A DNA stretch of 60,720 nucleotides, filler included, from Nemertoderma westbladi (Eukaryota > Animalia > Xenacoelomorpha), in the NCBI GenBank assembly GCA_032718475.1. It is 2 parts of 2 records of this genome, joined end to end, with 100 filler letters (N's around TTAATTAATTAA, not from the genome) between each part and the next. Parts side by side here need not be neighbours in the genome. Positions count along the whole stretch, not along the records: positions 30,993 to 60,720 come from JAUCBJ010004833.1; 1 more part is not named here. The stretch is one strand, 5' to 3'. Below the pieces are notes generated by a model. It saw only the letters and a list, made by a program, of their open reading frames with translations. It made no database searches and had not been told where the DNA came from. Shown piece after piece: positions 2,703-59,997 of this stretch. Position numbers and translations under genes: made by a program. Numbering within the stretch: position 1 is the stretch's first letter; each line of letters begins with the position of its first letter.

Positions 2703-2711
2703 GTATGTAAG

Positions 2712-36900: not shown

Positions 36901-39900
36901 GGTTTGTTTCTACAAATCTTTTAGCTGTGACACTAGTGGTGTGTATCTACAAATCTTTTAGCTGTGAGACTAGTGGTGTGTTTCTACAAATCTTTTAGCT
37001 GTGAGACTAGTGGTGTGTTTCTACAAATCTTTTAGCTGCGAGACTAGTGGTGTGTATCTACAAATCTTTTAGCTATGAGACTAGTGGTGTGTTTCTACAA
37101 ATCTTTTAGCTGTGAGACTGGTGGTGTGTTTCTACAAATCTTTTAGCTGTGAGACTAGTGGTGTGTTTCCACAAATCTTTTAGCTGTGAGGCTAGTGGTG
37201 TGTTTCTACAAATCTTTTTGCTGTGAGACTAGTGGTGTGTTTCTACAAATATTTTAGCTGTGAGACTAGTGGTGTGTTTCCACAAATCTTTTAGCTGTGA
37301 GACTAGTGGTGTGTTTTTACAAATCTTTTAGCTGTGAGACTAGTGGTGTGTATCAGCGTATCTACAAATCTTTTAGCTGTGAGACTAGTGGTTTGTTTCT
37401 ACAAATCTTTTTGCTGTGAGACTAGTGGTGTGTTTCTACAAATATTTTAGCTGTGAGACTAGTGGTGTGTTTCTACAAATCTTTTAGCTGTGAGACTAGT
37501 GGTTTGTTTCTACAAATCTTCTTGCTGTGAGACTAGTGGTGTGTTTCTACAAATATTTTAGCTGTGAGACTAGTGGTGTGTATCTACAAATCTTTTAGCT
37601 GGGAGACTAGTGGTGTGTTTCTACAAATCTTTTAGCTGTGAGACTAGTGGTGTGCTTCTACAAATCTTTTAGCTGTGAGACTGGGGGTGTGTTTCCACAA
37701 ATCTTTTAGCTGTGAGACTGGGGGTGTGTTTCTACAAATCTTTTGGTTGTGAGACTAGTGGTTTGTTTCTACAAATCTTTTAGCTGTGAGACTAGTGGTG
37801 TGTTTCTACAAATCTTTTAGCTGTAAGACTAGTGGTGTGTTTCTCCAAATCTTTTAGCTGTGAGACTAGTGGTGCGTATCAGCGTATCTAAAAATCTTTT
37901 AGCTGTGAGACTAGTGGTGTGTTTCTACAAATCTTTTAACTGTAAGACTAGTGGTGTGTTTCTCCAAATCTTTTAGCTGTGAGACTAGTGGTGCGTATCA
38001 GCGTATCTACAAATCTTTTAGCTGTGAGACTAGGGGTTTGTTTCTACAAATCTTTTAGCTGTGAGACTAGTGGTGTGTTTCTACAAATCTTTTAGCTGTG
38101 AGACTGGGGGTGTGTCTCTACAAATCTTTTAGCTGTGAGACTAGCGGTGTGTTTCGACAAATCTTTTAGCTGTGAGACTGGGGGTGTGTTTCTACAAATC
38201 TTTTGGTTGTGAGACTAGTGGTTTGTTTCTACAAATCTTTTAGCTGTGAGACTAGTGGTGTGTTTCTACAAATCTTTTACCTGTAAGACTAGTGGTGTGT
38301 TTCTACAAATCTTTTAGCTGTGAGACTAGTGGTGTGTTTCTACAAATCTTTTAGCTGTAAGACTAGTGGTGTGTTTCTACAAATCTTTTAGCTGTGAGAC
38401 TAGTGGTGCGTATCAGCGTATCTAAAAATCTTTTAGCTGTGAGACTAGTGGTGTGTTTCTACAAATCTTTTAGCTGTAAGACTAGTGGTGTGTTTCTCCA
38501 AATCTTTTAGCTGTGAGACTAGTGGTGCGTATCAGCGTATCTACAAATCTTTTAGCTGTGAGACTAGGGGTTTGTTTCTACAAATCTTTTAGCTGTGAGA
38601 CTAGTGGTGCGTATCAGCGTATCTAAAAATCTTTTAGCTGTGAGACTAGTGGTGTGTTTCTACAAATCTTTTAGCTGTAAGACTAGTGGTGTGTTTCTCC
38701 AAATCTTTTAGCTGTGAGACTAGTGGTGCGTATCAGCGTATCTACAAATTTTTTAGCTGTAAGACTAGTGGTGTGTTTCTACAAATCTTTTAGCTGTGAG
38801 ACTAGTGGTGTGTTTCTCCAAATCTTTTAGCTGTGAGACTGGGGGTGTGTTTCTACAAATCTTTTAGCTGTAAGACTAGTGGTGTGTTTCTCCAAATCTT
38901 TTAGCTGTGAGACTAGTGGTGTGTATCTACAAATCTTTTAGCTGTGAGACTAGTGGTGTGTTTCTACAAATCTTTTAGCTGTGAGACTAGTGGTGTGTTT
39001 CTACAAATCTTTTAGCGGTGAGACTAGTGGTGTGTTTCTACAAATCTTTTAGCTGTGAGACTCGGGGTTTGTTTCTACAAATCTTTTAGCTGTGAGACTA
39101 GTGGTGTGTTTCTACAAATCTTTTAGCTGTGAGACTCGGGGTTTGTTTCTACAAATCTTTTAGCTGTGAGACTAGTGGTGTGTATTTACAAATCTTTTAG
39201 CTGTGAGACTAGTGGTATGTTTCTACAAATCTTTTAGCTGTGAGACTAGTGGTGTGTTTCTACAAATCTTTTAGCTGCGAGACTAGTGGTGTGTATCTAC
39301 AAATCTTTTAGCTGTGAGACTAGTGGTGTGTTTCTACAAATCTTTTAGCTGTGAGACTGGTGGTGTGTTTCTACAAATCTTTTAGCTGTGAGACTAGTGG
39401 TGTGTTTCCACAAATCTTTTAGCTGTGAGACTAGTGGTGTGTTTCTACAAATCTTTTAGCTGTGAGACTAGTGGTGTGTTTCTACAAATATTTTAGCTGT
39501 GAGACTAGTGGTGTGTTTCCACAAATCTTTTAGCTGTGAGACTAGTGGTGTGTTTTTACAAATCTTTTAGCTGTGAGACTAGTGGTGTGTATCAGCGTAT
39601 CTACAAATCTTTTAGCTGTGAGACTAGTGGTTTGTTTCTACAAATCTTTTAGCTGTGAGACTAGTGGTGTGTTTCTACAAATCTTTTAGCTGTAAGACTA
39701 GTGGTGTGTTTCTACAAATCTTTTAGCTGTGAGACTAGTGGTGTGTTTCTACAAATCTTTTAGCTGTGAGACTAGTGGTGCGTATCAGCGTATCTACAAA
39801 TCTTTTAGCTGTGAGACTAGTGGTTTGCTTCTACAAATCTTTTAGCTGTGAGACTAGTGGTGTGTTTCTACAAATCTTTTAGCTGTGAGACTAGTGGTGT

Positions 39901-42900
39901 GCTTCTACAAATCTTTTAGCTGTGAGACTGGGGGTGTGTTTCCACAAATCTTTTAGCTGTGAGACTGGGGGTGTGTTTCTACAAATCTTTTAGCTGTGAG
40001 ACTAGTGGTGTGTTTCTACAAATCTTTTAGCTGTAAGACTAGTGGTGTGTTTCTCCAAATCTTTTAGCTGTGAGACTAGTGGTGCGTATCAGCGTATCTA
40101 AAAATCTTTTAGCTGTGAGACTAGTGGTGTGTTTCTACAAATCTTTTAGCTGTAAGACTAGTGGTGTGTTTCTCCAAATCTTTTAGCTGTGAGACTAGTG
40201 GTGCGTATCAGCGTATCTACAAATCTTTTAGCTGTGAGACTAGGGGTTTGTTTCTACAAATCTTTTAGCTGTGAGACTAGTGGTGTGTTTCTACAAATCT
40301 TTTAGCTGTGAGACTGGGGGTGTGTTTCTACAAATCTTTTAGCTGTGAGACTAGCGGTGTGTTTCGACAAATCTTTTAGCTGTGAGACTGGGGGTGTGTT
40401 TCTACAAATCTTTTGGTTGTGAGACTAGTGGTTTGTTTCTACAAATCTTTTAGCTGTGAGACTAGTGGTGTGTTTCTACAAATCTTTTAGCTGTAAGACT
40501 AGTGGTGTGTTTCTCCAAATCTTTTAGCTGTGAGACTAGTGGTGCGTATCAGCGTATCTAAAAATCTTTTAGCTGTGAGACTAGTGGTGTGTTTCTACAA
40601 ATCTTTTAGCTGTAAGACTAGTGGTGTGTTTCTCCAAATCTTTTAGCTGTGAGACTAGTGGTGCGTATCAGCGTATCTACAAATCTTTTAGCTGTGAGAC
40701 TAGGGGTTTGTTTCTACAAATCTTTTAGCTGTAAGACTAGTGGTGTGTTTCTCCAAATCTTTTAGCTGTGAGACTAGTGGTGCGTATCAGCGTATCTACA
40801 AATCTTTTAGCTGTAAGACTAGTGGTGTGTTTCTACAAATCTTTTAGCTGTAAGACTAGTGGTGTGTTTCTCCAAATCTTTTAGCTGTGAGACTAGTGGT
40901 GCGTATCAGCGTATCTACAAATCTTTTAGCTGTAAGACTAGTGGTTTGTTTCTACAAATCTTTTAGCTGTGAGACTAGTGGTGTGTTTCTCCAAATCTTT
41001 TAGCTGTGAGACTAGTGGTGTGTTTCTCCAAATCTTTTAGCTGTGAGACAAGTGGTGTGTTTCTCCAAATCTTTTAGCTGTGAGACTAGTGGTGCGTATC
41101 AGCGTATCTACAAATCGTTTAGCTGTGAGACTAGGGGTTTGTTTCTACAAATCTTTTAGCTGTGAGACTAGTGGTGTGTTTCTCCAAATCTTTTAGCTGT
41201 GAGACTAGTGGTGCGTATCAGCGTATCTACAAATATTTTAGCTGTGAGACTAGTGGTGTGTTTCTACAAATCTTTTAGCTGTGAGACTAGTGGTGTGTAT
41301 CTACAAATCTTTTAGCTGTGAGACTAGTGGTGTGTTTCTACAAATCGTTTACCTGTGAGACTAGTGGTGTGTTTCTACAAATCTTTTGGCTGTGAGACTA
41401 GTGGTTTGTTTCTACAAATCTTTTAGCTGTGAGACTAGTGGTGTGTTTCTACAAATCTTTTAGCTGTGAGACTGGGGGTGTGTTTCTACAAATCTTTTAG
41501 CTGTGAGACTAGCGGTGTGTTTCGAAAAATATTTTAGCGGTGAGACTAGTGGTGTGTTTCTACAAATCTTTTAGCTGTGAGACTAGTGGTGTGTTTCTAC
41601 AAATCTTTTAGCTGTGAGACTAGCGGTGTGTTTCGACAAATCTTTTAGCTGTGAGACTGGGGGTGTGTTTCTACAAATCTTTTGGTTGTGAGACTAGTGG
41701 TTTGTTTCTACAAATCTTTTAGCTGTGAGACTAGTGGTGTGTTTCTACAAATCTTTTAGCTGTAAGACTAGTGGTGTGTTTCTCCAAATCTTTTAGCTGT
41801 GAGACTAATGGTGCGTATCAGCGTATCTAAAAATCTTTTAGCTGTGAGACTAGTGGTGTGTTTCTACAAATCTTTTAGCTGTAAGACTAGTGGTGTGTTT
41901 CTCCAAATCTTTTAGCTGTGAGACTAGTGGTGCGTATCAGCGTATCTACAAATCTTTTAGCTGTGAGACTAGGGGTTTGTTTCTACAAATCTTTTAGCTG
42001 TGAGACTAGTGGTGTGTTTCTCCAAATCTTTTAGCTGTGAGACTAGTGGTGCGTATCAGCGTATCTACAAATCTTTTAGCTGTAAGACTAGTGGTGTGTT
42101 TCTACAAATCTTTTAGCTGTGAGACTAGTGGTGCGTATCAGCGTATCTACAAATCTTTTAGCTGTGAGACTAGTGGTGTGTTTCTACAAATCTTTTAGCT
42201 GTGAGACTAGTGGTGTGTTTCTACAAATCTTTTAGCTGTGAGACTAGTGGTTTGTTTCTACAAATCTTTTAGCTGTGAGACTAGTGGTGTGTTTCTACAA
42301 ATCTTTTAGCTGTGAGACTGGGGGTGTGTTTCTACAAATCTTTTAGCTGTGAGACTAGCGGTGTGTTTCGAAAAATCTTTTAGCGGTGAGACTAGTGGTG
42401 TGTTTCTACAAATCTTTTAGCTGTGAGACTAGTGGTGTGTTTCTACAAATCTTTTAGCTGTGTGACTAGTGGTGTGTTTCTACAAATCTTTTAGCTGTGA
42501 GACTAGTGGTGTGTTTCTACAAATCTTTTAGCTGTGAGACTAGTGGTGCGTATCAGCGTATCTACAAATCTTTTAGCTGTAAGACTAGTGGTGTGTTTCT
42601 ACAAATCTTTTAGCTGTGAGACTAGTGGTGCGTATCAGCGTATCTACAAATCTTTTAGCTGTAAGACTAGTGGTGTGTTTCTACAAATCTTTTAGCTGTG
42701 AGACTAGTGGTGCGTATCAGCGTATCTACAAATCTTTTAGCTGTGAGACTAGTGGTGTGTTTCTACAAATCTTTTAGCTGTGAGACTAGTGGTGTGTTTC
42801 TACAAATCTTTTTGCTGTGAGACTAGTGGTGTGTTTCTACAAATCTTTTAGCTGTGAGACTAGTGGTGTGTATCTACATATCTTTTAGCTGTGTGACTAG

Positions 42901-44295
42901 TGGTGTGTTTCTACAAATCTTTTAGCTGTGAGACTAGTGGTGTGTTTCTACAAATCTTTTAGCTGTGAGACTAGTGGTGTGTTTCTACAAATCTTTTAGC
43001 TGTGAGACTAGTGGTTTGTTTCTACAAATCTTCTTGCTGTGAGACTAGTGGTGTGTTTCTACAAATCTTTTAGCTGTGAGACTAGTGGTGTGATTCTACA
43101 AATCTTTTTGCTGTGAGACTAGTGGTGTGTTTCTACAAATCTTTTAGCTGTGAGACTAGTGGTTTGTTTCTACAAATCTTCTTGCCGTGAGACTAGTGGT
43201 GTGTTTCTACAAATCTCTTAGCTGTGAGACTAGTGGTGTGTATCTACAAATCTTTTAGCTGTGAGACTAGTGGTGTGTTTCTACAAATCTTTTTGCTGTG
43301 AGACTAGTGGTGTGTTTCTACAAATCTTTTAGCTGTGATACTAGTGGTGTGTTTCTACAAATCTTTTTGCTGTGAGACTAGTGGTGTGTTTCTACAAATC
43401 GTTTAGCTGTGAGACTAGTGGTGTGTATCTACAAATCTTTTAGCTGTGAGACTAGTGGTTTGTTTCTACAAATCTTTTAGCTGTGAGACTAGTGGTGTGT
43501 TTCTACAAATCTTTTTGCTGTGAGACTAGTGGTGTGTTTCTACAAATCTTTTAGCTGTGATACTAGTGGTGTGTTTCTACAAATCTTTTTGCTGTGAGAC
43601 TAGTGGTGTGTTTCTACAAATCTTTTAGCTGTGATACTAGTGGTGTGTTTCTACAAATCTTTTTGCTGTGAGATTAGTGGTGTGTTTCTACAAATCTTTT
43701 AGCTGTGAGACTAGTGGTTTGTTTCTACAAATCTTCTTGCCGTGAGACTAGTGGTGTGTTTCTACAAATCTTTTAGCTGTGAGACTAGTGGTGTGTATCT
43801 ACATATCTTTTAGCTGTGAGACTAGTGGTGTGTATCTACAAATCTTTTTGCTGTGAGACTAGTGGTGTGTTTCTACAAATCTTTTAGCTGTGATACTAGT
43901 GGTGTGTTTCTACAAATCTTTTTGCTGTGAGACTAGTGGTGTGTTTCTACAAATCTTTTAGCTGTGATACTAGTGGTGTGTTTCTACAAATCTTTTTGCT
44001 GTGAGACTAGTGGTGTGTTTCTACAAATCTTTTAGCTGTGATACTAGTGGTGTGTTTCTACAAATCTTTTTGCTGTGAGACTAGTGGTGTGTTTCTACAA
44101 ATCTTTTAGCTGTGAGACTAGTGGAGTGTTTCTACAAATCTTTTAGCTGTGAGACTAGTGGTGTGTTTCTACAAATCGTTTAGCTGTAAGACTAGTGGTG
44201 TGTTTCTACAAATCTTTTAGCTGTAAGACTAGTGGTGTGTTTCTACAAATCTTTTAGCTGTAAGACTATTGGTGTGTGTCCACAAATCTTTTACT
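30993..44295. repeat. 37-bp satellite array (about 13.3 kb) with 45-bp variants
   Basis: Unit TAGCTGTGAGACTAGTGGTGTGTTTCTACAAATCTTT; variant with 8-bp ATCAGCGT insertion; 3706-bp higher-order duplication (32486 vs 36192). Confidence 0.97.
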
Positions 44296-44972
44296 TGAGA
44301 CTGGCTGGTGGAGCGTATCTCCAACATACTTCCATGCTGAAAAGTAGCACCGCTGTTATCACACTGAATAACCCTTTGTTCATTTATCCATTTATCTCAC
44401 AAATTGGAAAATAATGTGTGAGCGACAACACAGCTTGACCTTGTCGTGGAATAAAATACTTTAATTTTTGAATTAAGTATATCGTATTTGAATACGGTAA
44501 CGATTTTTTTTATTAACAGTTTTTGTAACATATCATTCATTATTTACTCTTACTACAGTAATTACCCCGGCGCGTAGGCCTAGCGTAAACAAATTACTCT
44601 GACATCTATGCATAGCTTAGGCTAGGCTTAGGGAGGGGGAATCACTAAACAAATATGTACCTACTCAAGAAAATGTAAATGTAAGGCGAGTGTGGGTTAT
44701 CTATTGGGATTTCTTATGTTCGTCAAATTACGATGTATAAGGGGTGGTTCAGTGAAATAGTGAATGGTTGAAATAATAAATATCAAATTTAAATAATCAA
44801 ATAAATGTGCAAAATAAATTGTTAATTATCTTCAAAAATTAATTAATGAAATTAATTATCAATAATGAATTTATTGAAATTCGAAGGAATTTCTTGAAAC
44901 TGCAATTAACCACACCATTAATGTGTTTTATTCCAGGTATTGCGATATTAAATCATTTAAGGATATTATAAT

Positions 44973-46137
44973 ATGTATCTGTTTAAGTTCTCAACTATTG
45001 GTATAATATTCGGTATACTTCTTCAGGGAGTGTTCTCTGAGATATCAACTATTTGCAACTATGATACAATTAAACACATTAATTGGAATGCATTCCAAGA
45101 CCGAGCTTTTACCAGGTTGAAAGTAGATATTTTCTCTAGAGTTATTTTCACATGGGAAGCCGGTAGAGGAGGAAGCAATCTGGATATATTTCATACTGGC
45201 GATATTGTAGTTCAAGTCTCTGAAGAAGAAGAAACTTTGGTGATAAAAGTGGAAAATGATGGAGATAATATCACATCAGGCACGTCATCAAGGTCTATAC
45301 AAAGTTATCTGGTTCTGCTTTCAGTAATTGGAATCACTGCTTGCATTTACAGTTCAATGCATAGACGGTGCAACTATGTATTCTCATTCCTCGTGTTACT
45401 GGGTGTCCTTGGAATTGGTGGTACAGCAAGTGGGATTGATAATTGCATTAATGATAATTATCTTCACATAATCATTCCTTCTGATGTTATTCTTGAGTTA
45501 TGCACAAATGGCGAGTGCCAACCTGTTTTATGTGATTTGAATCCCAATTCAACATACAGCAGCCTCCCTTCCAATCTGGGCAGCCTTTTCACTGACAAAG
45601 CATGTTCTATTGAAGAACCTGAGTTTTGGGATGAATGGGCAACTTATTTCTTTGGAGATGGTTCCTCTCAGTCGTTCACCGATGATGCTGATGGTGACGG
45701 TTTAGTCAATATTTTGGAATATTATGGAATGAGTATATTTGAAGGCGCTTTTGCAGATTCTTCAAATATACCAAGGAATGAAATGCCAATGGAGAGGAAG
45801 CGCAGGGGCATTGGCGTCTTATCGTTCGATGATGTCATATCAACAGGCACTGATCCAACTGATCCAGACAGTGATAATGATTTACTGATGGATGGAATGG
45901 AAATATATAATGGTCTCGATCCCAAAAATTATGATAATCCCGAAAATGACATTGATAAAGATAAGTTGGATAACCTTCAGGAGCAGATTCACGGTACAGA
46001 TCCCTTAAATGCTGACAGCGATGGCGATGGTGTCTCGGATGGCGTTGAAGTGGAACAAGGGAGCGATCCGGTAGATTTATCAGATGGAGGAGTTGGACCT
46101 GTTTGGGAAGAACAATTCGCAAGAATGAAGCTAACAG
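44973..46137 (+). CDS. Coding exon 1 of secreted/membrane TSP3-repeat pesticin-like muramidase gene
   Basis: Acceptor TTTTATTCCAG at 44936 upstream of ATG; signal peptide, two hydrophobic segments, RKRR, DxDxDGLxDxxE/GTDP repeats; donor ACAG|GTATAA (phase 1). Confidence 0.85.
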
Positions 46138-46576
46138 GTATAATAATGTTTATATTTTAACATTATTTAACATTTAATAAACTGAAATTTTAAAGTAAAA
46201 AGAAAATAGAAATCCAAATCTTCCTGAGTGTCTCAGAAATGTCCTCGCTAAATTTATTCGTCTTGAAGGTCCCTAATAGTAAACCACGTATCCATGAAGT
46301 ATAACCTGATGTAATTGCAGAAATTATTTTCATTTCATCAACAGAGGTTTGCTTTCACCAAGTAAAGCTGATACCTGGCTCCTGACTGCAAAAGAGTTTT
46401 GGATTCATAATAACACAAAGTCTAACAGAGTTTTCCACCTCAAAGTTTCCTGACCACTATACATGCTAAGGGAGTTAAACTCTGCCAATTTAAGTGTCCA
46501 ATCTCCCAACATAATATGGTGATTAATCTATATAAAATTATCTATGCTATTGTTTTATTTTAATGATAAAAGGGCT

Positions 46577-49500
46577 AACTTACCCTCCGGTAACTGCTCT
46601 ACCATTAACTCACCCTCCAGTAACAGCTCTCCCATTAACTTACCCTCCAGTAACCGCTCTCCCATTAACTTAACCTCCAGTAACCGCTCTCCCATTAACT
46701 TACCCTCCAGTAACCGCTCTCCCATTAACTTACCCTCCAGTAACCGTTATCCCATTTACTTACCCTCCAGTAACCGCTCTCCCATTAACTTACCCTCCAG
46801 TAACCGCTCTCCCATTAACTTACCCTCCAGTAACCGCTCTCCCATTAACTTACCCTCCAGTAACCGCTCTCCCATCAACTTACCCTCCAGTAACCGCTCT
46901 CCCATTAACTTACCCTCCAGTAACCGCTCTCCCATTAACTTACCCTCCAGTAACCGCTCTCCCATTAACTTACCCTCCAGTAATCGCTCTCCCATTAACT
47001 TACCCTCCAGTAAACGCTCTCCCATTTACTTACCCTCCAGTAACCGCTCTCCCATTAACTTACCCTCCAGTAACCGCTCTCCCATTTACTTACCCTCCAG
47101 TAACCGCTCTCCCATTAACTTACCCTCCAGTAACCGCTCTCCCATTAACTTACCCTCCAGTAACCGCTCTCCCATTAACTTACCCTCCAGTAACCGCTCT
47201 CCCATTAACTTACCCTCCAGTAACCGCTCTCCCATTAACTTACCCCCCAGTAACCGCTCTCCCATTAACTTACCCTCCAGTAACCGCTCTCCCATTAACT
47301 TACCCTCCAGTAACCGCTCTCCCATTAACTTACTCTCCAGTAACCGCTCTCCCATTAACTTACCCTCCAGTAACCGCTCTCCCATTAACTTACCCTCCAG
47401 TAACCGCTCTCCCATTAACTTACCCTCCAGTAACCGCTCTCCCATTAACTTACCCTCCAGTAACCGCTCTCCCATTAACTCACCCTCCAGTAACCGCTCT
47501 CCCATTAACTTAACCTCCAGTAACCGCTCTCCCATTAACTTACCCTCCAGTAACCGTTATCCCATTTACTTACCCCCCAGTAACCGCTCTCCCATTAACT
47601 TACCCTCCAGTAACCGCTCTCCCATTAACTTACCCTCCAATAACCGCTCTCCCATTAACTTACCCTCCAGTAGCCGCTCTCCCATTAACTTACCCTCCAT
47701 AGTAACCGCTCTCCCATTAACTTACCCTGCAGTAACCGCTCTCCCATTAACTTACCATGCAGTAACCGCTCTCCCATTAACTTACCCTCCAGTAACCGCT
47801 CTCCCATTAACTTACCCTCCAGTAACCGCTCTCCCATTAACTTACCCTCCAGTAACCGCTCTCCCATTAACTTACCCTCCAGTAACCGCTCTCCCATTAA
47901 CTTACCCCCCAGTAACCGCTCTCCCATTACCTTACCCTCCAGCAACCGCTCTCCCATTAACTTACCCTCCAGTAACCGCTCTCCCATTAACTTACTCTCC
48001 AGTAACCGCTCTCCCATTAACTTACCCTCCAGTAACCGTTATCCCATTTACTTACCCTCCAGTAACCGCTCTCCCATTAACTTACCCTCCAGTAACCGCT
48101 CTCCCATTAACTTACCCTCCAATAACCGCTCTCCCATTAACTTACCCTCCAGTAGCCGCTCTCCCATTAACTTACCCTCCATAGTAACCGCTCTCCCATT
48201 AACTTACCCTGCAGTAACCGCTCTCCCATTAACTTACCATGCAGTAACCGCTCTCCCATTAACTTACCCTCCAGTAACCGCTCTCCCATTAACTTACCCT
48301 CCAGTAACCGCTCTCCCATTAACTTACCCTCCAGTAACCGCTCTCCCATTAACTTACCCTCCAGTAACCGCTCTCCCATTAACTTACCCCCCAGTAACCG
48401 CTCTCCCATTAACTTACCCTCCAGCAACCGCTCTCCCATTAACTTACCCTCCAGTAACCGCTCTCCCATTAACTTACTCTCCAGTAACCGCTCTCCCATT
48501 AACTTACCCTCCAGTAACCGCTCTCCTATTAACTTACCCTCCAGTAACCGCTCTCCCATTAACTTACCCTCCAGTAACCGCTCTCCCATTAACTTACCCT
48601 CCAGTAACCGCTCTCCCATTAACTCACCCTCCAGTAACCGCTCTCCCATTAACTTAACCTCCAGTAACCGCTCTCCCATTAACTTACCCTCCAGTAACCG
48701 CTCTCCCATTAACTTACCCTCCAGTAACCGCTCTCCCATTAACTTACCCTCCAGTAACCGCTCTCCCATTAACTTACCCTCCAGTAACCGCTCTCCCATT
48801 AACTCACCCTCCCGTAACCGCTCTCCCATTAACTTACCCTCCAGTAACCGCTCTCCCATTAACTTACCCTCCAGTAACCGCTCTCACATTAACTTACCCT
48901 CCAGTAACCGCTCTCCCATTAACTTACCCTCCAGTAACCGCTCTCCCATTAACTTACCCTCCAATAACCGCTCTCCCATTAACTTAACCTCCAGTAACCG
49001 CTCTCCCATTAACTTAACCTCCAGTAACCGCTCTCCCATTAACTTACCCTCCAGTAGCCGCTCTCCCATTAACTTACCCTCCATAGTAACCGCTCTCCCA
49101 TTAACTTACCCTGCAGTAACCGCTCTCCCATTAACTTACCATGCAGTAACCGCTCTCCCATTAACTTACCATCCAGTAACCGCTCTCCCATTAACTTACC
49201 CTCCAGTAACCGCTCTCCCATTAACTTACCCTCCAGTAACCGCTCTCCCATTAACTTACCCTCCAGTAACCGCTCTCCCATTAACTTACCCTCCAGTAAC
49301 CGCTCTCCCATTAACTTACCCCCCAGTAACCGCTCTCCCATTAACTCACCCTCCAGTAACCGCTCTCCCATTAACTTACCCTCCAGTAACCGCTCTCCCA
49401 TTAACTTACCCTCCAGTAACCGCTCTCCAATTAACTTACCCTCCAGTAACCGCTCTCCAATTAACTTACCCTCCAGTAACCGCTCTCCCATTAATATACC

Positions 49501-52500
49501 CTGCAGTAATCGCTCTCCCATAAACTTACCCTCCAATAACCGCTCTCCCATTAACTTACCCTCCAGTAACCGCTCTCCCATTAACTTACCCTCCAGTAAC
49601 CGCTCTCCCATTAACTTACCCTCCAGTAACCGCTCTCCCATTAACTTACCCTCCATAGTAACCGCTCTCCCATTAACTTACCCCCCAGTAACCGCTCTCC
49701 CATTAACTTACCCTCCAGTAACCGCTCTCCCATTAACTTACCCTCCAGTAACCGCTCTCCCATTAACTTACCCTCCAGTAACCGCTCTCCGATTAATATA
49801 CCCTGCAGTAATCGCTCTCCCATAAACTTACCCTCCAGTAACCGCTCTCCCATTAACTTACCCTCCAGTAACAGCTCTCCCATTAACTTACCCTCCAGTA
49901 ACCGCTCTCCCATTAACTTACCCTCCAGTAACCGCTCTCCCATTAACTTACCCTCCAGTAACCGCTCTCCCATTAACTTACCCTCCAGTAACCGTTATCC
50001 CATTTACTTACCCTCCAGTAACCGCTCTCCCATTAACTTACCCTCCAGTAACCGCTCTCCCATTAACTTACCCCCCAGTAACCGCTCTCCCATTACCTTA
50101 CCCTCCAGCAACCGCTCTCCCATTAACTTACCCTCCAGTAACCGCTCTCCCATTAACTTACTCTCCAGTAACCGCTCTCCCATTAACTTACCCTCCAGTA
50201 ACCGTTATCCCATTTACTTACCCTCCAGTAACCGCTCTCCCATTAACTTACCCTCCAGTAACCGCTCTCCCATTAACTTACCCTCCAATAACCGCTCTCC
50301 CATTAACTTACCCTCCAGTAGCCGCTCTCCCATTAACTTACCCTCCATAGTAACCGCTCTCCCATTAACTTACCCTGCAGTAACCGCTCTCCCATTAACT
50401 TACCATGCAGTAACCGCTCTCCCATTAACTTACCCTCCAGTAACCGCTCTCCCATTAACTTACCCTCCAGTAACCGCTCTCCCATTAACTTACCCTCCAG
50501 TAACCGCTCTCCCATTAACTTACCCTCCAGTAACCGCTCTCCCATTAACTTACCCCCCAGTAACCGCTCTCCCATTAACTTACCCTCCAGCAACCGCTCT
50601 CCCATTAACTTACCCTCCAGTAACCGCTCTCCCATTAACTTACTCTCCAGTAACCGCTCTCCCATTAACTTACCCTCCAGTAACCGCTCTCCTATTAACT
50701 TACCCTCCAGTAACCGCTCTCCCATTAACTTACCCTCCAGTAACCGCTCTCCCATTAACTTACCCTCCAGTAACCGCTCTCCCATTAACTCACCCTCCAG
50801 TAACCGCTCTCCCATTAACTTAACCTCCAGTAACCGCTCTCCCATTAACTTACCCTCCAGTAACCGCTCTCCCATTAACTTACCCTCCAGTAACCGCTCT
50901 CCCATTAACTTACCCTCCAGTAACCGCTCTCCCATTAACTTACCCTCCAGTAACCGCTCTCCCATTAACTCACCCTCCCGTAACCGCTCTCCCATTAACT
51001 TACCCTCCAGTAACCGCTCTCCCATTAACTTACCCTCCAGTAACCGCTCTCCCATTAACTTACCCTCCAGTAACCGCTCTCCCATTAACTTACCCTCCAG
51101 TAACCGCTCTCCCATTAACTTACCCTCCAATAACCGCTCTCCCATTAACTTAACCTCCAGTAACCGCTCTCCCATTAACTTAACCTCCAGTAACCGCTCT
51201 CCCATTAACTTACCCTCCAGTAGCCGCTCTCCCATTAACTTACCCTCCATAGTAACCGCTCTCCCATTAACTTACCCTGCAGTAACCGCTCTCCCATTAA
51301 CTTACCATGCAGTAACCGCTCTCCCATTAACTTACCATCCAGTAACCGCTCTCCCATTAACTTACCCTCCAGTAACCGCTCTCCCATTAACTTACCCTCC
51401 AGTAACCGCTCTCCCATTAACTTACCCTCCAGTAACCGCTCTCCCATTAACTTACCCTCCAGTAACCGCTCTCCCATTAACTTACCCCCCAGTAACCGCT
51501 CTCCCATTAACTCACCCTCCAGTAACCGCTCTCCCATTAACTTACCCTCCAGTAACCGCTCTCCCATTAACTTACCCTCCAGTAACCGCTCTCCAATTAA
51601 CTTACCCTCCAGTAACCGCTCTCCAATTAACTTACCCTCCAGTAACCGCTCTCCCATTAATATACCCTGCAGTAATCGCTCTCCCATAAACTTACCCTCC
51701 AATAACCGCTCTCCCATTAACTTACCCTCCAGTAACCGCTCTCCCATTAACTTACCCTCCAGTAACCGCTCTCCCATTAACTTACCCTCCAGTAACCGCT
51801 CTCCCATTAACTTACCCTCCATAGTAACCGCTCTCCCATTAACTTACCCCCCAGTAACCGCTCTCCCATTAACTTACCCTCCAGTAACCGCTCTCCCATT
51901 AACTTACCCTCCAGTAACCGCTCTCCCATTAACTTACCCTCCAGTAACCGCTCTCCGATTAATATACCCTGCAGTAATCGCTCTCCCATAAACTTACCCT
52001 CCAGTAACCGCTCTCCCATTAACTTACCCTCCAGTAACAGCTCTCCCATTAACTTACCCTCCAGTAACCGCTCTCCCATTAACTTACCCTCCAGTAACCG
52101 CTCTCCCATTAACTTACCCTCCAGTAACCGCTCTCCCATTAACTTACCCTCCAGTAACCGCTCTCCCATTAACTTACCCTCCAGTAACCGCTCTCCCATT
52201 AACTTACCCTCCAGTAACCGCTCTCCCATTAACTTACCCTCCAGTAACCGCTCTCCCATTAACTTACCCTCCAGTAACCGCTCTCCCATTAACTTACCCT
52301 CCAGTAACCGCTCTCCAATTAACTTACCCTCCAGTAACCGCTCTCCCATTAACTTACCCTCCAGTAACCGCTCTCCAATTAACTTACCCTCCAGTAACCG
52401 CTCTCCCATTAACTTACCCTCCAGTAACCGCTCTCCCATTAACTTACCCTCCAGTAACCGCTCTCCCATTAACTTACCCTCCAGTAACCGCTCTCCCATT

Positions 52501-53143
52501 AACTTACCCTCCAGTAACCGCTCTCCCATTAACTTACCCTCCAGTAACCGCTCTCCCATTAACTTACCCTCCAGTAACCGCTCTCCCATTAACTTACCCT
52601 CCAGTAACCGCTCTCCCATTAACTTACCCTCCAGTAACCGCTCTCCCATTAACTTACCCTCCAGTAACCGCTCTCCCATTAACTTACCCTCCAGTAACCG
52701 CTCTCCAATTAACTTACCCTCCAGTAACCGCTCTCCAATTAACTTACCCTCCAGTAACCGCTCTCCCATTAATATACCCTGCAGTAATCGCTCTCCCATA
52801 AACTTACCCTCCAGTAACCGCTCTCCCATTAACTTACCCTCCAGTAACAGCTCTCCCATTAACTTACCCTCCAGTAACCGCTCTCCCATTAACTTACCCT
52901 CCAGTAACTGCTCTCCCATTAACTTACCCTCCAGTAACCGCTCTCCCATTAACTTACCCTCCAGTAACCGCTCTCCCATTAACTTACCCTCCAGTAACCG
53001 CTCTCCAATTAACTTACCCTCCAGTAACCGCTCTCCCATTAACTTACCCTCCAGTAACCGCTCTCCCATTAACTTACCCTCCAGTAACCGCTCTCCGATT
53101 AATATACCCTGCAGTAATCGCTCTCCCATAAACTTACCTCCAG
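46577..53143. repeat. 30-bp intronic minisatellite (about 6.5 kb)
   Basis: Unit CCAGTAACCGCTCTCCCATTAACTTACCCT; 2-bp insertion variants; 2166-bp higher-order duplication (48167/50333, 49069/51235, 49641/51807). Confidence 0.97.
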
Positions 53144-53149
53144 CAACGT

Positions 53150-53485
53150 CCAAGCGTTCAAGTGTCAAGCTAGTGGAGACTAATGAAACAACTCCAAGCT
53201 TGTATAGAGTCTGATTGGAGATGTTTTTATTGAACGTGACACATTGAACCTGTTGCAGCATTCTTGTATAAGTTCCACCCAGAGATTTGGTATCCTCTGC
53301 AGTTAGAGTCTGCAGTTAGTTAGCATGGTGTCCCAAGAGTACTGACAGTTTCCATAAATAATCGAATGTTGAGATTCCATTTTATTATATTGGACTTCCA
53401 AATCCTGGACAGACTATTCAATGCTCCCCATGTCTTATCCTTACGTATCCGAAGAGGTCTTTATCTGACTTCCAGATCCATGATT
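53150..53485 (-). mobile_element. Older RTE LINE fragment
   Basis: Minus translation LRIRKDKTWGALNRLSRIWKS, VQCVTFNKNISNQTLY parallels the adjacent copy. Confidence 0.65.
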
Positions 53486-53489
53486 CCAC

Positions 53490-55150
53490 TACTACTACTA
53501 CTACTAGGATCGGCATGCTGCATTGCAGCTGCATTTTTAAGAATGCTGTGCCGGCTTATCGACAAAATTGCACTGCCACAACTCCCTATCACCTATGAAA
53601 TTTGCTAGATCATCCGCATCTTCAAGGCCAGTGTCCTTTAAGATGCGTCTCAAGAAAGTCATGGGCTGTCCACCATGCTTATTCACTCCATGAGGCTGCC
53701 AAAGTACAAGATTATGCACTGGTTGGTCCTCACGGCGAAAGCAATGTCCTGTAAAGCGGAGGCGATTTTGTTCTAGTGTCAAGCTTGGGGGAACCAATGA
53801 GACACCTCCAATGTTATATAGTGTCTTGTTGGAGATGTGTGCATTGTACTTGACACAATGAACCCGGCGTAGCATTCTTGTGAATGTGCCATCCAGAGAT
53901 TTGTTGTCCTCAGCAGTTAAAGCCCAGCATGGACTCCCATAGAGGAGTACTGGAACTACTGCTGCTCTAAATAATCGGACCTTAAGTTTCCGATTAATTC
54001 TCGGTGACTTCCAAATCCTGGAAAGCCTATTCAAGGCTGCCCATGCCTTTCCCTTACGTATTCGAAGGTCCTCACCTGACTTCCGGATCCATGACCCTAG
54101 GTAACAGAAGTTGTGCACATGCTCAAGCACCATCTTTTGAGCTTATGCTCACACGATCAGAAACTTGCTGAGGACTTTCAAAGTTAACTGTCAAAATTTT
54201 GGTCTTTCTGGAGTTAATAAAAATGATTCCAAGTAGCAGACGTCTTCCACATGCGCAAGCAAGCCGTCAATGGAACTTATGTCTTTATGTTCAGACATTT
54301 ATTCGTGGTTGTCAAGGTTCACTGTCATAACTTTGCTCTTCTTGAAGTTTAGAAAAACACCAACACTAGAAGCAACCTGCTCCAGTGAGCAGACGGGCCT
54401 TTGGACTCTCTCTAGTGATTCTGACATTACCCCTATGTCATCAGCAAAGTGTAGATCAGAAGGTGCTCTGCTGGATTTCCTCTATTTCTTGTGCCAGTAG
54501 GGGGTATTACCATCATCCCATTTTTATAATGATGATTTAAGGACATGCATAGAACATAATCAACAACAATTTTGAATACGTATGGTGCAATTGTGACACC
54601 CTGACGGCCTCCCCATACATCTGAATACTTCGAATGGATCTATGTCTCCATCAGCAGTAGACACAAATGTGGTGGAACCATCATAGTGATCGGATAGCTG
54701 CAATAATTTCCCCAGGAATCCCATGTGATGCAAGTATGCTGAACATATGTCAGAGGCCTTAAAGAAGTCAACTAAGATAATAGACAGACGTCTGTCTGTC
54801 TTTGTTTAGTTCTTCGATTTTCATTCTAAGCGCCAAAATAGGCACCATGGTCCCACAATCTTTACATAACACATTTTGATTCCCATGCAACAGTCTCTCA
54901 ACAGGATCCTTGATATAGCTTTGTAGCAATCGAGATCAACGAGATTCCATGAAAATATCCAAAGGTTATTAGGTTGCCCTTCTTTGGTTGTGGCAGGGAC
55001 CAACGTAGTGGTTTTAATTTCTTGAGGCAAACTCTTTGTCCTATAGATATACATGTCCACAATAATGGGGTGAATGAGATCCAAATCTCATGGGAATTTT
55101 AATGACCTCAGGGGGCATGCCATCTACTCAACTGGCAAGATTGGTCTTCC
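53490..55150 (-). mobile_element. RTE-clade LINE, 5'-truncated, decayed
   Basis: FCYLGSWI, FRAAVVPVLLYGSPCW, RLRFTGHCFR; DLHFADDI RT motif near 54440-54460; (TAG)n tail at 53490-53506. Confidence 0.85.
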
Positions 55151-55258
55151 AGTATCCGCTGTTCCATTAACTTACCTGATTCTAAATTAAATTGACCTTG
55201 AAGTCTTCCTCATAATAAAAAGTGATATTTTCAAATATTTTTTTTTGTATCTGCATAG

Positions 55259-55498
55259 TTGGTGATCCCAGTGGGAGTGAATCAGAAAGATACATACTCC
55301 ATGTAGGAGGCATCAGTCATCAATCGCCCGACTTTGGAGTGGTTGGCAGTGGAACATATTCCTTTGATCCTGGATCGTATCCTATAACACTTCAGCACTA
55401 CGGAACCCGACCAGGTTTCGGACATGCTGATTACGACTATGTGATAGCAATAGATCAAACAGGAGGAGGAGCCACAACTTCTATTACGGACCCCTATG
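55259..55498 (+). CDS. Coding exon 2 (VGDPSGSESERY...DYDY beta-rich domain)
   Basis: Acceptor TTTTTTGTATCTGCATAG|TT, donor TATG|GTTAGT; phase 1-1, in frame with exons 1 and 3. Confidence 0.85.
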
Positions 55499-56934
55499 GT
55501 TAGTAATAGTATTAATGTATAGTGCTAAATGTCTTACAGACAAAGTATTTAACTTTTCTATATAATCCTATAATTTTACCAGGTGGAATAGGAATTCTGT
55601 GAAGCCCATTTGCACTTCAGACCCAAAAAAACAACGAATCTATAAATTCCAGGGTCCTAATAACAACATTGGACGGGAATCCGAAGACAACAGCATGTTA
55701 CTACAGTCTAACCATTCATCAGAGACATAACAAGCAGTCAAGTTTTATGAAGATCTGACTGGACTTATAAAGGACATTCTGAAACACAATCTCAAATTAT
55801 TGCTCTTGACCTGAATGTGCATATTGGCCCAGAAGACATCGAGAGTTACACCTATGCCGCCAGTTTGAACAGAAATGGATGCTACTCTTAGACATAATGT
55901 AAGAATGTTATTTGATACCAACAATCACGACATTCTAAAAGAGTAAGGGGAAGCTATGGACCTTTCGATGCCCTAATGGAATCAAAGCGCAGCTGGATTA
56001 CATCCTTATAAACAAAAAGTGGAGGAATGGAGGAACAGCATGATTAAATGCGAGGCATACATCTCGTTCAACCCAATTGGTTCAGACCACAGAATCGTAA
56101 CTGCAGAGGTCGGACTCAGTCTTAGAGACTCAGGACAAGCAAGCAAATCATTTGTGACTGGGAGAAACTCAGAACTGACAATGCAGTAAAGGATGCTTAC
56201 TTAGTAGAAGCTCAAAACCGCTATGAAGTAGTTCATATATAAAATAAATGGGTAAAACACAAGAGTCTTACACCCCACAAACTAACAAAAAACACAGGAT
56301 CAGGACATTACGATTATGAAGTAGTTCAGTCAATGGTTGAAGTCCACTCTACCGATTCTATATACCAGGTAATAATAAAAGGAAAAGTCCACAAGGAATC
56401 AGTGAAGAGGCTTATATTCCCCAGAAACCCAAACGTAAACTTTATGTGCTATGACAAGACTCTGAGGGAAGAGAGAATATCTTAAAGTGACCTACAACCA
56501 ACAGCCGAAAACATCAACAAGGTTGAGAAAGCTAAAAAAGATCCTAAAGCTATGAGAGGTACACACAGGACAAAATTGAAGTAATTATAACTGTTCACAT
56601 ACAGCAACAATCAAGACTTACCTGTTGTTTTAAGGGGCGCCTAAAAGCAGATAATCTTAAGAACGTGTTGGGAAAAGGTAATATCACTTCAGCAACTTGC
56701 TTGGGCAGCCTCCAAACATCGAGGTCAGCCCTACATGGATAATATCTGACAAGACACTATCTATAGAAACAGGGGTCTTACATCCCCTAATCTGCTTACT
56801 TACATCTGCTTACTCCAGAGAAGCATTAAATACTTACTTGTCAAATCATAACAAAAAAATAACATAACATAACTGGTGAGTAAGAAAAATGGATTTTGAT
56901 CAACAGATCAATAGATCAACAATAGCTCAGATAC

Positions 56935-57283
56935 TAAGCTTCTGTATCACGATATAACAAACCAATGTCAGCGACAATAACTTCTGGTATTCCAGAAGTA
57001 AGCTCTTAGGATTTTCAGCATTTTACCTCTATGGATGAAGTCAAATGATTTCTTTAAGTTCACATTTCAGAACATCAGGAAAGTTATTTGCTTAAATCTT
57101 TCAACCACCCTCCGGATTGAAGGATTTAACTCAAGTAACCTTCCTGCAGTTCTGATGTGAACTTAAAGAAAGCATTTGACTTCATCCATAGAGGTAAAAT
57201 GCTGAATATCTTAAGAGCTTTCTTCTGAAATACCAGAAGTAATTGTCGCTGGTATTGGTATTTAAATCGTAACACAGAAGCTC
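56935..57283. repeat. Diverged foldback (inverted duplication, about 170-bp arms) within the RTE RT region
   Basis: CAGCATTTTACCTCTATGGATGAAGTCAAATG pairs with CATTTGACTTCATCCATAGAGGTAAAATGCTG; loop near 57105-57112. Confidence 0.85.
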
Positions 57284-57565
57284 AGGCGCTCTCAACAGAT
57301 GGTGAAACTGAGTTGTTCTCAATCCTATCCTGACTGGCGAACTGCAGCGTGACATTGGAGTCATTACTATTCGTAATTGTATTGGATTACGCAATGACGA
57401 CAGCCGCAAAGGGAGAATGTCTTGGATTCGAATTCCCAGAACAAAGAAGCTGCATATATCCGTCACCTACAGTCATAGACACCGACTTTGCGTATGATAT
57501 CGCCCTGCTTTCTAATACGCAACAGATGCACAGCCTAGAATGAATAAAGTGGGGAGCCTGCTAAG

Positions 57566-58347
57566 CAGGGACAGGATACGATTCGATACGATACGAAAAT
57601 ACGATACGATACGAACCAATTTTTCGCGATACGATACGATACGAATGTATTATTGGGAAAATACCATACGATACGAAAAATCCAAGATACGATACGAAAT
57701 ACGAAAAAGTTTCGTATTTTTTCGTATCGTATTTTATTTAATAGTTGATAAAAAACATGTATTTTGTGGAGAAAATATTTTATAAATCTCTATATAATAG
57801 GCAAATATTTTTTATTTCAATGTTCCAGTATTGTCAGTTTGTATGTGTTCTTGCTACAGCAACAGTGTACAGCTGTAGGCCTATCCTAGGCAATTATGAT
57901 TATTGATGCAATTATGAATTTGATGTACCAATATGGAAAAAAATTTAACTTCCAAGTTCGAAGTTTTACTAGAATAAAACTGTGGTTTATTTCAAAATAA
58001 ATGTTTTTTTATTTTATAGTTTATATTTCAGTGGTCTTTTTATCATTATTCTACAGTTAATTACCATGAGATTAACGATCCTCCTGTCCTACACATTTTA
58101 TTGACATATGTATTGATAAAATTGTAAGCTGTAACTTATTTTATACACTGTGATCTCTGGTATGACTGTTAAAAAACAATAATATTTCCAAAATAATAAG
58201 ATACAAAAATACAAAAAATAATTATTCGTATTATACGATACGAAGTCAATTTTATTGATACGATACGAAATTCGATACGAAGAAAATAATGCGACACGAA
58301 ATATTAAAATTCGTTTTCGTATCGTATCGTATCGTATCCTGTCCCTG
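57566..58347. mobile_element. hAT-like MITE inserted in the RTE
   Basis: TIR CAGGGACAGGATACG / CGTATCCTGTCCCTG, subterminal (GATAC)n repeats, degenerate TSD CTGCTAAG / CTGTTATAAG. Confidence 0.8.
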
Positions 58348-58977
58348 CTGTTATAAGGAGGTTGGATTGCATATAAATGCTACAAAGACCGAATTCGTAG
58401 CTTTTAGTGTTAATGAGAACTTCATCACAATTGATAATAATCCACCAAGGAAAGCGGAGGACTTTCAGTTCCTTGGGTCATGGATAGTAGCAAAAAACGT
58501 ATAGAAGTTAATACCATCTGGAAATCAGGTCTCTCCAGGCACCTGAAGACCAAGTTAGAGCCACAGTGGAAATTGAACTTTTATACGGGGATAAGACCTG
58601 GACACTGACAAAATTTCTTGAACAACGAATTGATAGTTGTTACACAAGATTATTAAGGGCAGCCCTAAATATCTGTTGGAGACAACACAACAATACAACC
58701 TGTATAAACAACCCTCTGTGAACGCAAATTAAGATTCAGTGGGAACTGCTGGAGAAGTAAACATGAGGTCATACCAGATCTACTTTTCTGGCAACCAACA
58801 CAAGGAACGCATAGCCAAGGATGACCGGCTAGAAATATAGACCAACTTGAAAGGGATACTGAACTTGAGAGAAACGGAATTGCGTCAACTATGTAGATTC
58901 GGGAAGCCTGGTAGTAGTAGTAGTAACTGTCATTAAATCTTATCATTAATTAATATCTTGTTCTTGTTTTATTATAG

Positions 58978-59354
58978 GAATTCTGGGTTATCATGACGAA
59001 AGTAGCTACTTGTATGCTAGCGGTAAACCTGCCTCGCTAACAGTTGTATCAAACATACCAGGATTTAAAGATGTCTACGATCACTTGATAGACCGTGAAG
59101 GCAAGCTAAATGTTGGTTATATACCAACATCTGGCTCTGGGGTTACCATAGCAACTGGTGTTGATTTGGGACAACAGTCAGTAAAAGAATTACGGAGAAA
59201 AGGGATATCAGAGGAATTGATTGCCAAACTTAAAGATTACCTTGGTAAGAAGACGAGAGCCGAGGTAGAAGCTGCTGGATTGAACCCGGCAGATCTGAAG
59301 CTAAGCGACGATGAAGTGGCTGAACTCGATAAACCATTTGTTGACGACGCTATG
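58978..59354 (+). CDS. Coding exon 3: N-terminal part of pesticin-like muramidase domain
   Basis: Acceptor TTGTTTTATTATAG|GA, donor ATG|GTAAGC (phase 0); LIDREG...GYIP..GSGVTIATGVDLGQ..LRRKGISEELIAKLKDYLGKK. Confidence 0.85.
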
Positions 59355-59709
59355 GTAAGCCAAATTACTTCTATGTGCCAAACTGGGGGTGAGCGTGAGG
59401 TGGAGTTTTAATTAATTCGCTGAAAATGTTACTAGGGATTCATAAAACTTTCATAAAAAAATTTTCCTGAGAAGTCACAAATATACATACAGGAATATGT
59501 AGTATCATAATTTATTTGAAGAAATAGACTGCTTTTTATTTATTATTCCAAGGTGGAATTCACCTCAACAGGATCCACATTTCAGGTCGTGAATAAGGCC
59601 AGGGAATTAAGTAGCTTGTTTGTAATTAAGGGAATATTAGATTTACCTAAAGTCTAAAAAAATACAGTAAATCAGGTTGTCTAACTTCTACATAAAATCC
59701 TACATTTAG

Positions 59710-59997
59710 AAAGCTGTCCAAAGTTACTCGACTAAAATGACGACTAAAGGTTTATCAGTGTTGGTGTCACTTCGGCATTGGAGTTATCGTCTGGGAAACA
59801 CGTCGCCAGACGGTAAGTTGGCTGTTGTAGTGAAGGAAGGAGAGGAACAGATAGTGAAGAATTACGTGTGGGAAGCAATTAAAGAGAAGACCGCTACGGA
59901 TTCTAAGTTGCGGAATGCCTTGTCGGAAACTCTTAAACACCATCGAAGTGGTACAGCTGCGTATAACAGAATACGACACGAGATGAACTATCTCTAA
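59710..59997 (+). CDS. Coding exon 4: C-terminal part of muramidase domain, stop codon
   Basis: Acceptor CATTTAG|AAA in frame; SVLVSLRHW and YNRIRHEMNYL* resemble lysozyme C-terminal helices (RRxxExxxL). Confidence 0.75.
   Translation, partial: KAVQSYSTKMTTKGLSVLVSLRHWSYRLGNTSPDGKLAVVVKEGEEQIVKNYVWEAIKEKTATDSKLRNALSETLKHHRSGTAAYNRIRHEMNYL

Follow-up and report, generated by a model that had tools for sequence, protein, structure and literature searches.

A predicted spliced gene of Nemertoderma westbladi joins a TSP3-bearing scaffold to a pesticin-type muramidase domain

The window, meaning the whole stretch of Nemertoderma westbladi DNA that we analyzed (60,720 nucleotides, filler included), holds a gene of four exons (Table 1). 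We read the gene model from the genomic sequence and from homology across the junctions. When the open reading frame (ORF) pieces of the exons are joined at GT-AG sites, they give 2070 nt, or 689 amino acids and a stop, with zero internal stops. The three introns (9.1, 3.5, and 0.36 kb) have canonical splice sites and phases 1, 1, and 0. Contiguous alignments span junction 1 in 27 of 300 proteins (19 of the 25 listed at E ≤ 1e-33) and junction 3 in 67 of 300; junction 2 is spanned in 10 of the 300, namely 8 scaffold relatives and 2 overhangs from muramidase matches. One contiguous protein, P0178, matches exon 1 with its residues 146-293, exon 2 with 294-372, and, with 372-394, the 23 codons that open exon 3. 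Exon 1 aligns along its whole length to P0286, P0297, and P0153. The reversed window protein, used as a control query, returned zero matches. As far as sequence can tell, this agreement with contiguous relatives is more than chance. An initial annotation of this DNA had proposed the same four-exon model, and it is borne out by the GT-AG sites, the phases, the open frame, and contiguous relatives over 3 of 3 junctions; the peptides it quoted were all found at the positions it gave.

Table 1. Features of the gene and its noncoding neighborhood, in window positions
Feature	Position	Strand	Description
Exon 1, aa 1-388	44973..46137	+	Signal-like N-terminus; beta-rich domain interrupted by a pair of hydrophobic segments; region with Cys; TSP3 repeats
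Predicted signal peptide, ~aa 1-24	44973..45044	+	From hydropathy; preceded by an in-frame stop at 44958-44960
Two hydrophobic segments, aa 108-130 and 132-156	45294..45440	+	Predicted membrane hairpin anchor, from hydropathy
Bacterial-type TSP3 calcium-binding repeats, aa 234-372	45672..46088	+	Pfam PF18884 (TSP3_bac)
RKRR, aa 275-278	45795..45806	+	Predicted furin-type site; variable loop between TSP3 repeats
30-bp tandem array, ~219 copies, 6.6 kb	46576..53147	.	In intron 1
Exon 2, aa 389-468	55259..55498	+	Beta-sandwich core with GDPSGSxSE motif
Exon 3	58978..59354	+	End of beta-sandwich, then muramidase N-lobe
Exon 3, first 23 codons	58978..59045	+	Beta-sandwich end; scaffold/muramidase fusion point comes next
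Exon 3, remainder	59046..59354	+	Muramidase N-lobe: E509 (59097), P518 (59124), T525 (59145), D531 (59163)
Exon 4, aa 595-689	59710..59997	+	Muramidase C-lobe; W618 (59779); stop 59995-59997
Candidate polyadenylation signal AATAAA	60177..60182	+	180 nt past the stop

The protein has two parts, a scaffold (aa 1-491) and a muramidase (aa 492-689). Since they meet within exon 3, the fusion is independent of any splice assumption. The 23 codons before the meeting point match P0178 372-394 at 65% and residues 547-569 of the bacterial protein P0302 at 61%. Long repetitive ORFs in intron 1 are due to the tandem array. No paralogue of the gene was found within the window, which ends 723 nt downstream of the stop. 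A Pao/BEL element lies in the same window, and the surroundings of the gene are rich in repeats.

In the scaffold half, exon 1 matches TSP3_bac with 32.5 bits against a cutoff of 25 (E = 7.4e-8). The NCBIfam profile matches of the window protein are TSP3, all below cutoff, and exon 2 matched zero families in Pfam and NCBIfam. A model of the P0297 scaffold (pLDDT 70) gave zero Foldseek matches at E ≤ 0.001 and a top VIA score of Z 5.5; with matches this weak, we leave the beta-sandwich without a named fold or function. Likenesses to C2 domains and to carbohydrate-binding domains were both discarded because the resemblance is too weak. Hydrophobic runs occur at the place of the predicted hairpin in 5 of 5 full-length scaffold relatives, and the P0297 model has helices there (99-113 and 119-132, pLDDT below 50). 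We take RKRR to be a furin-type motif. Of 11 anchored relative rows, 7 have R-X-X-R in the matching loop (several of them near-identical) and 4 lack it. Neither the internal hydrophobic segments nor RKRR had been mentioned in the initial annotation. Other eukaryote-type proteins with the same scaffold end in AMOP in place of the muramidase, "eukaryote-type" being a label that we inferred for the scaffold relatives and for most stand-alone muramidases. The AMOP parts of P0301, P0286, P0155, and P0300 found no match in the window, and no alternative AMOP exon turned up there. In the scaffold tree, from which L017 was omitted, 8 eukaryote-type rows group together among bacterial rows of the PVC phyla (91/90, unstarred; bootstrap unsettled and backbone unresolved).

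The core of TSP3 repeats and beta-sandwich is also present at 57 bacterial loci, 48 of them in PVC phyla. The tails behind it are very varied, with 49 tails falling into 24 clusters. Known domains were matched in 15 of 55 scanned tails (RHS, alpha/beta hydrolase, PAD, CHAP, and DUF6973), and one further tail is Ig-like. RHS repeats account for 3 of the 55, and P0302 (locus L001) ends in CHAP, a cell-wall-type domain. The Pesticin family was found in 0 of the 55 scanned tails, from 57 loci. The next ORF is at most 15 nt away at 38 of 46 of these loci versus 50 of 162 control ORFs, and it is both close and signal-like at 25 of 46 versus 18 of 162, in a comparison where the controls may include false ORFs and the bacterial loci are mutually related. 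Judging by these sequence features, a fixed core, exchangeable C-termini, and a coupled next gene, the bacterial scaffold relatives look like polymorphic toxins.

The muramidase half matches Pesticin (PF16754) through exon 3, with 65.2 bits against a cutoff of 25.8 (E = 8.7e-18; profile positions 7-101 of 156), and exon 4 gave a single sub-cutoff chance match in Pfam. Both domains named in the initial annotation, TSP3_bac and Pesticin, are therefore over curated Pfam cutoffs. No profile of c-, g-, or i-type lysozyme or of GH24 phage lysozyme (PF00959) matched any exon at E ≤ 1. The receptor-binding and translocation domains of pesticin are absent, as exons 1 and 2 match TSP3_bac alone or nothing in Pfam. 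Pesticin residues E178, T201, D207, and P187 have their equivalents in E509, T525, D531, and P518. A profile of the clade to which the window domain belongs (see below) aligned to residues 178-271 of pesticin, with E178 as the first aligned residue (E = 1.1e-10), and E, P, T, and D are kept in 24, 26, 27, and 27 of its 27 rows. According to the accessible part of PMC3390615, pesticin E178A, T201A, and D207A are inactive, and Q301 is worth 10-fold activity and is invariant across the homologue alignment of Patzer et al. The Q301 column, mapped through relative P0048, holds W618 in the window protein and Trp in 23 of 27 clade rows. Our literature search found no assayed activity for any member of this clade. 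The model of relative P0003 (52% identical to aa 499-689; pLDDT 89) matches pesticin with Z 15.6 (rmsd 2.4, 166 aligned), and phage lysozymes rank after pesticin (Z ~10, 14-22% identity). Modeled through P0003, the muramidase half is predicted to have a T4-lysozyme-like fold, as the initial annotation had held. The domain is basic, with a pI of 8.6.

We built the muramidase tree from 71 of 136 sufficiently long domains (the 34 closest, each third of the remainder, and three added), leaving out 22 fragments. A starred clade of 27 rows (99/95) unites the window domain with proteins of Tigriopus and Oithona. This clade also takes in stand-alone proteins that bear a signal, as well as 9 rows of long phage-type proteins that form a starred group of their own; one phage-type member adjoins an internal virion protein gene. 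Monophyly of the eukaryote-type sequences has an AU p of 0.25, and transfer may have gone either way. The Saccoglossus protein lies in another branch, and a joint clade with it was rejected (AU p 0.008). The end branches leading to the two halves of the window protein are of ordinary length (0.33 and 0.42 versus medians of 0.38 and 0.40). Intron 3 coincides in position and phase with an intron of the L082 gene, a muramidase relative with C-type lectin and GST as neighbors and with no scaffold match within 8 kb upstream. At 82 muramidase loci there was no clear scaffold match and one weak, low-identity hit, and the homologue and profile-library matches listed, within length limits, contained no other protein fused in this way. 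P0014 falls into pesticin and phage-lysozyme clusters of the ESM Atlas that are viral for the most part. Among named phage genomes there was a single weak match, 44 aa long, and IMG/VR yielded two loci, so no donor could be named.

The trees and the distribution of relatives suggest a microbial origin for both halves. To this extent the horizontal origin proposed initially stands; a single, recent bacterial TSP3-pesticin unit finds no support, given the lack of Pesticin in the scanned bacterial tails and of a clear scaffold at the muramidase loci. The supposed kinship with bacteriocins and T6SS effectors also fell away, the closest relatives being stand-alone secreted, copepod, and phage virion proteins. 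Nor does a bacterial unit seem to have been newly placed under a signal peptide, since the N-terminal 491 aa are already present in AMOP-ended eukaryote-type proteins.

Since the three catalytic residues are intact and the carrier has toxin-like bacterial relatives, we consider it reasonably probable that this protein is an extracellular antibacterial enzyme, shuffled in the host from two separately borrowed microbial parts. The signal peptide would lead it into the secretory path, and the hydrophobic segments, with a topology taken from hydropathy, would form a membrane hairpin that leaves the C-terminal part outside. A furin-type cut at RKRR could then shed an acidic fragment of 411 aa (computed size, 44.5 kDa). 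TSP3 repeats stiffen upon calcium binding, and here they may serve as a calcium-stiffened stalk. The muramidase domain would cleave peptidoglycan via the observed E509, T525, and D531, by analogy with the activity of pesticin. Its role in the host could be defence against bacteria or their digestion.

A Trp in the Q301 column, a C-lobe outside the Pfam model, and AMOP, which is no enzyme, at the end of full-length scaffold relatives would fit a peptidoglycan binder or a weak cutter of another glycan, in a protein that, like the AMOP-ended relatives, would be a tethered sensor or a component of the matrix. We regard this as improbable, since E, T, and D are retained clade-wide, also in those phage-type virion proteins that share the Trp. 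A young, lineage-specific chimera, little expressed or decaying, might explain why an orthologous fusion is not found among the matches listed and why the surroundings are repeat-rich; 690 unbroken codons, canonical splice sites across three introns, intact motifs, and the ordinary end branches make it unlikely. The CHAP end of P0302 means that effectors with this scaffold and a cell-wall-type domain exist, and bacterial tails are varied enough that a ready-made TSP3-muramidase effector could have arrived in a single transfer. That is a slim prospect: none of the scanned tails is a Pesticin, each half is nearest to eukaryote-type proteins without the other half, and the gene has an intron position in common with L082. 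Host domain shuffling remains our best reading over a single bacterial transfer. It is very unlikely that the gene is an artefact of contamination, of faulty assembly, or of joining exons that belong to two genes, for although the tandem array of intron 1 might mask an assembly error, introns and a Pao/BEL element share the window, the junctions match contiguous relatives residue by residue, and the two halves are fused within a single exon, exon 3.

Beyond shuffling in the host, we advance a wider scenario only tentatively. Eukaryotes may have domesticated the carrier of a PVC polymorphic toxin system, added the hairpin and furin site, and still exchange its C-terminal payload; the payload here would be an undescribed, widespread invertebrate class of pesticin-branch lysozyme that phage ejection proteins share, possibly through animal-to-phage transfer. 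Several invertebrate groups seem short of known lysozyme types, and if the proposal is true, a pesticin-branch class that has introns and unaltered catalytic residues, with members in copepods and other hosts, would be a further lysozyme type. The scaffold points to a toxin-like system without a name in Planctomycetes, Verrucomicrobia, and kin, reused in eukaryotes. The literature on pesticin domains in animals and other eukaryotes and on TSP3 with AMOP or polymorphic toxins, of which we covered few subscription papers, did not describe this gene type. The surprise is limited, since bivalves are already known to carry borrowed lysozymes that gained introns and were fused to other genes.

Among known systems, pesticin (PF16754; PDB 4aqn, 4epf) and the pesticin-like T6SS effector VgrG3cp have the fold that is predicted for the window domain through P0003 and equivalents of the four conserved residues, and, in the available portions of their descriptions, they carry the muramidase at the C-terminus behind a delivery part, as the window protein does (PMC3390615, PMC9927483). 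Unlike pesticin, the window protein has Trp for Q301, a diverged C-lobe, and no receptor or translocation domains; its gene is predicted to be spliced, encodes a predicted signal peptide, and belongs to a separate clade in common with phage virion proteins. The bivalve co-opted phage lysozymes (BCPL, GH24) are likewise T4-fold enzymes of phage kinship in animals; they gained introns, were fused to PGRP, MALRD2, and HSPG, and lyse bacteria, according to the portion of Ren et al. 2017 (PMC5303276) available to us. Going by that partial description, the window gene is set apart by its pesticin branch and by a fusion partner that is itself of likely bacterial origin. Animal proteins annotated with a "Pesticin C-terminal domain" (Tigriopus XP_059079911.1, Oithona EP00093 P009542, and Saccoglossus XP_002740238.1) are unstudied; the two copepod proteins are in the same muramidase clade as the window gene, but all have short Cys-rich N-termini rather than its scaffold. 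Polymorphic toxin systems, RHS and similar, consist of a constant core, interchangeable C-termini, and an adjacent immunity gene. The bacterial scaffold relatives resemble them in core, tails, and RHS content, and their tightly coupled next gene may be a counterpart of the immunity gene. The window gene, by contrast, is predicted to be spliced, and no partner gene was seen next to it; its core domain is without a Pfam or NCBIfam name. The domesticated amidase effectors (Dae) of ticks are also cell-wall hydrolases that were borrowed and are now encoded by genes of eukaryotic structure. Transfers of GH25 muramidases, as cited in the accessible text of PMC5303276, are a similar case. Compared with Dae and GH25, the window gene involves another enzyme family and would be a two-source chimera rather than a single-domain capture.

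The pesticin-like domain that the initial annotation had read into the spliced gene is confirmed, with exon 3 scoring above the Pfam Pesticin (PF16754) cutoff. The profile of this domain's relatives begins its alignment to pesticin at E178, and E509, P518, T525, and D531 of the window protein correspond to pesticin E178, P187, T201, and D207. In pesticin, E178, T201, and D207 are essential for activity, according to excerpts of PMC3390615. A confident model of P0003, a relative 52% identical to the window domain, matched pesticin with Z 15.6 and phage lysozymes with Z of about 10. By profile, the protein belongs to none of the c-, g-, or i-type and PF00959 lysozyme families; pesticin bacteriocin proper was likewise ruled out.

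Ahead of this muramidase, which takes up residues 492 to 689, residues 1 to 491 form a scaffold that runs from a hydrophobic N-terminus through a beta-rich domain, split by two hydrophobic segments, and TSP3_bac repeats with an RKRR loop to an unnamed beta-sandwich bearing a GDPSGSxSE motif. All full-length scaffold relatives (5/5) have the hydrophobic pair, and R-X-X-R occurs at the loop in 7 of 11 relative rows. The exons, domains, and residues are the established part of our model. We consider it reasonably probable that the protein works as follows: it would be secreted, the paired hydrophobic segments would form a hairpin membrane anchor, a cut at RKRR would shed a 411-amino-acid fragment, the calcium-bound TSP3 repeats would act as a stalk, and the basic C-terminal domain would cut peptidoglycan. 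Against an enzyme, however, the column of pesticin's conserved Q301 holds Trp in the window protein and in 23 of the 27 rows of its muramidase clade, and we know of no clade member with known activity. A binding or matrix role instead of catalysis is unlikely.

The library search gave 505 muramidase relatives, 150 of them listed; a 71-row tree was built, and tree tests used LG+G4. The window muramidase sits inside a starred 27-row clade, together with Tigriopus and Oithona proteins, short unnamed proteins with signal-like starts, an intron-bearing gene on locus L082, and nine long phage-type proteins that form a starred group of their own. Window intron 3 and one L082 intron are identical in position and phase, and no scaffold match was found upstream of the L082 gene, whose neighbors are lectin and GST genes. 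Together these suggest that the source of the muramidase was an older, already spliced host gene, although the common intron could be a parallel gain. In L067, the intron lies four codons before that of the window gene. That the window protein is a young or decaying chimera of its two parts seems quite unlikely. Intron-bearing and copepod clade members are L066, L067, L068, L071, and L112 and P0014, P0001, and P0112, several with Cys-rich N-terminal repeats that show a putative likeness to rusticalin-type repeats, linked to transferred hydrolases.

In the unconstrained tree, the phage-type proteins sit among rows inferred to be eukaryote-type, and monophyly of the latter versus phage-type rows gave an AU p of 0.25, so transfer may have run in either direction between phages and eukaryotes. 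The phage-type gene on L062 adjoins an internal virion protein gene; among the long phage-type proteins with this clade's muramidase at one end are P0012, P0013, P0018, P0020, and P0023. A single clade of the window branch and a Saccoglossus pesticin-domain protein was rejected (AU p 0.008), which argues that animals likely acquired the pesticin-domain branch more than once. Two proteins, P0006 and P0007, carry pesticin domains of another branch, likely a second gain: one is from Saccoglossus and combines three of them with WSC domains, and the other, unnamed, has four or more.

Scaffold relatives cover residues 1 to 491 at 37 to 41% identity and end in an AMOP or AMOP-like Cys-rich tail. The eight eukaryote-type scaffold rows cluster (91/90, not starred, bootstrap unsettled). 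The TSP3 and beta-sandwich core by itself occurs at 57 loci in GTDB genomes, of which 48 carry the label Verrucomicrobiota, Kiritimatiellota, Planctomycetota, or Lentisphaerota, 4 belong to other phyla, and 5 are unassigned. There the parts C-terminal to it vary, with 49 tails falling into 24 clusters; RHS, alpha/beta hydrolase, PAD, CHAP, or DUF6973 matched 15 of 55 bacterial tails, and Pesticin matched none of the 55 scanned. Transfer of the gene as one bacterial unit is very unlikely. The next gene starts at most 15 nt away at 38 of 46 core loci versus 50 of 162 ORFs in a crude control, and often carries a signal-like start. Toxin-immunity pairs are laid out as such tightly coupled neighboring genes. 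The TSP3 and GDPSGSxSE proteins of PVC bacteria (L001 to L057) are a candidate polymorphic toxin system.

The four-piece GT-AG gene first proposed also stands: its ends are canonical, its phases are 1, 1, and 0, and it encodes 689 amino acids and a stop. We checked the junctions by homology to contiguous relatives, and among 300 stored proteins, junctions 1, 2, and 3 were spanned in 27, 10, and 67, respectively. The relative P0178 aligns gaplessly to exon 1, exon 2, and the opening 23 codons of exon 3, and exon 4 begins at the alignment column directly after the end of exon 3. The border between scaffold and muramidase lies in uninterrupted DNA within exon 3, and the fusion is therefore independent of the splice model. 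The window gene is a real gene; an artefact is the least credible reading. Within 44920-44972, ahead of the start codon, an acceptor-like site ending at 44936 suggests an untranslated first exon farther upstream.

The eukaryotic DNA of the window is rich in repeats, among them long tandem arrays and a Pao/BEL retrotransposon, and its host is likely an animal. Two large arrays flank exon 1. Inside introns 1 and 2 lie pieces resembling LINEs, an inverted repeat of 350 bp, and a small inverted-end element (53156-54223, 56934-57285, 57564-58349). The intronless ORF had no Pfam family above cutoff and looks like a transposon-derived gene.

Coordinates of features in the window and of two phage-type relatives
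Feature	Position	Strand	Remark
Exon 1	44973-46137		
Exon 2	55259-55498		
Exon 3	58978-59354		
Exon 4	59710-59997		
Decayed Pao/BEL pieces	1-4049		window start
Intronless ORF, 530 codons	9778-11370	+	Cys-rich end
Direct repeat, 653 bp	14263-14914, 28993-29641		98% identical; possible LTRs of Pao/BEL
Pao/BEL retrotransposon	18769-26659	-	2138-codon open frame
Tandem array, 37 bp x 351	30993-44310		CpG strongly depleted
Tandem array, 30 bp x 219	46576-53147		
Long phage-type protein	L062:5871-8537		clade's muramidase at one end
Long phage-type protein	L058:7938-9809		clade's muramidase at one end

Animal pesticin-domain proteins exist as database annotations, and our literature search found no account of them or of the TSP3 and beta-sandwich scaffold. 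The animal pesticin domain goes unmentioned in the consulted portions of PMC12855814, PMC7379824 (with one supplement), PMC8698798, and bioRxiv 10.64898/2026.06.07.730663; the supplements of this preprint may list the copepod Cys-rich forms. The closest known activity is that of the pesticin activity domain, whose mode of action we predict for the window muramidase. In its intron gain and fusion, the window gene parallels the phage-derived lysozymes of bivalves, which acquired introns and were fused to further genes (PMC5303276, in excerpt).
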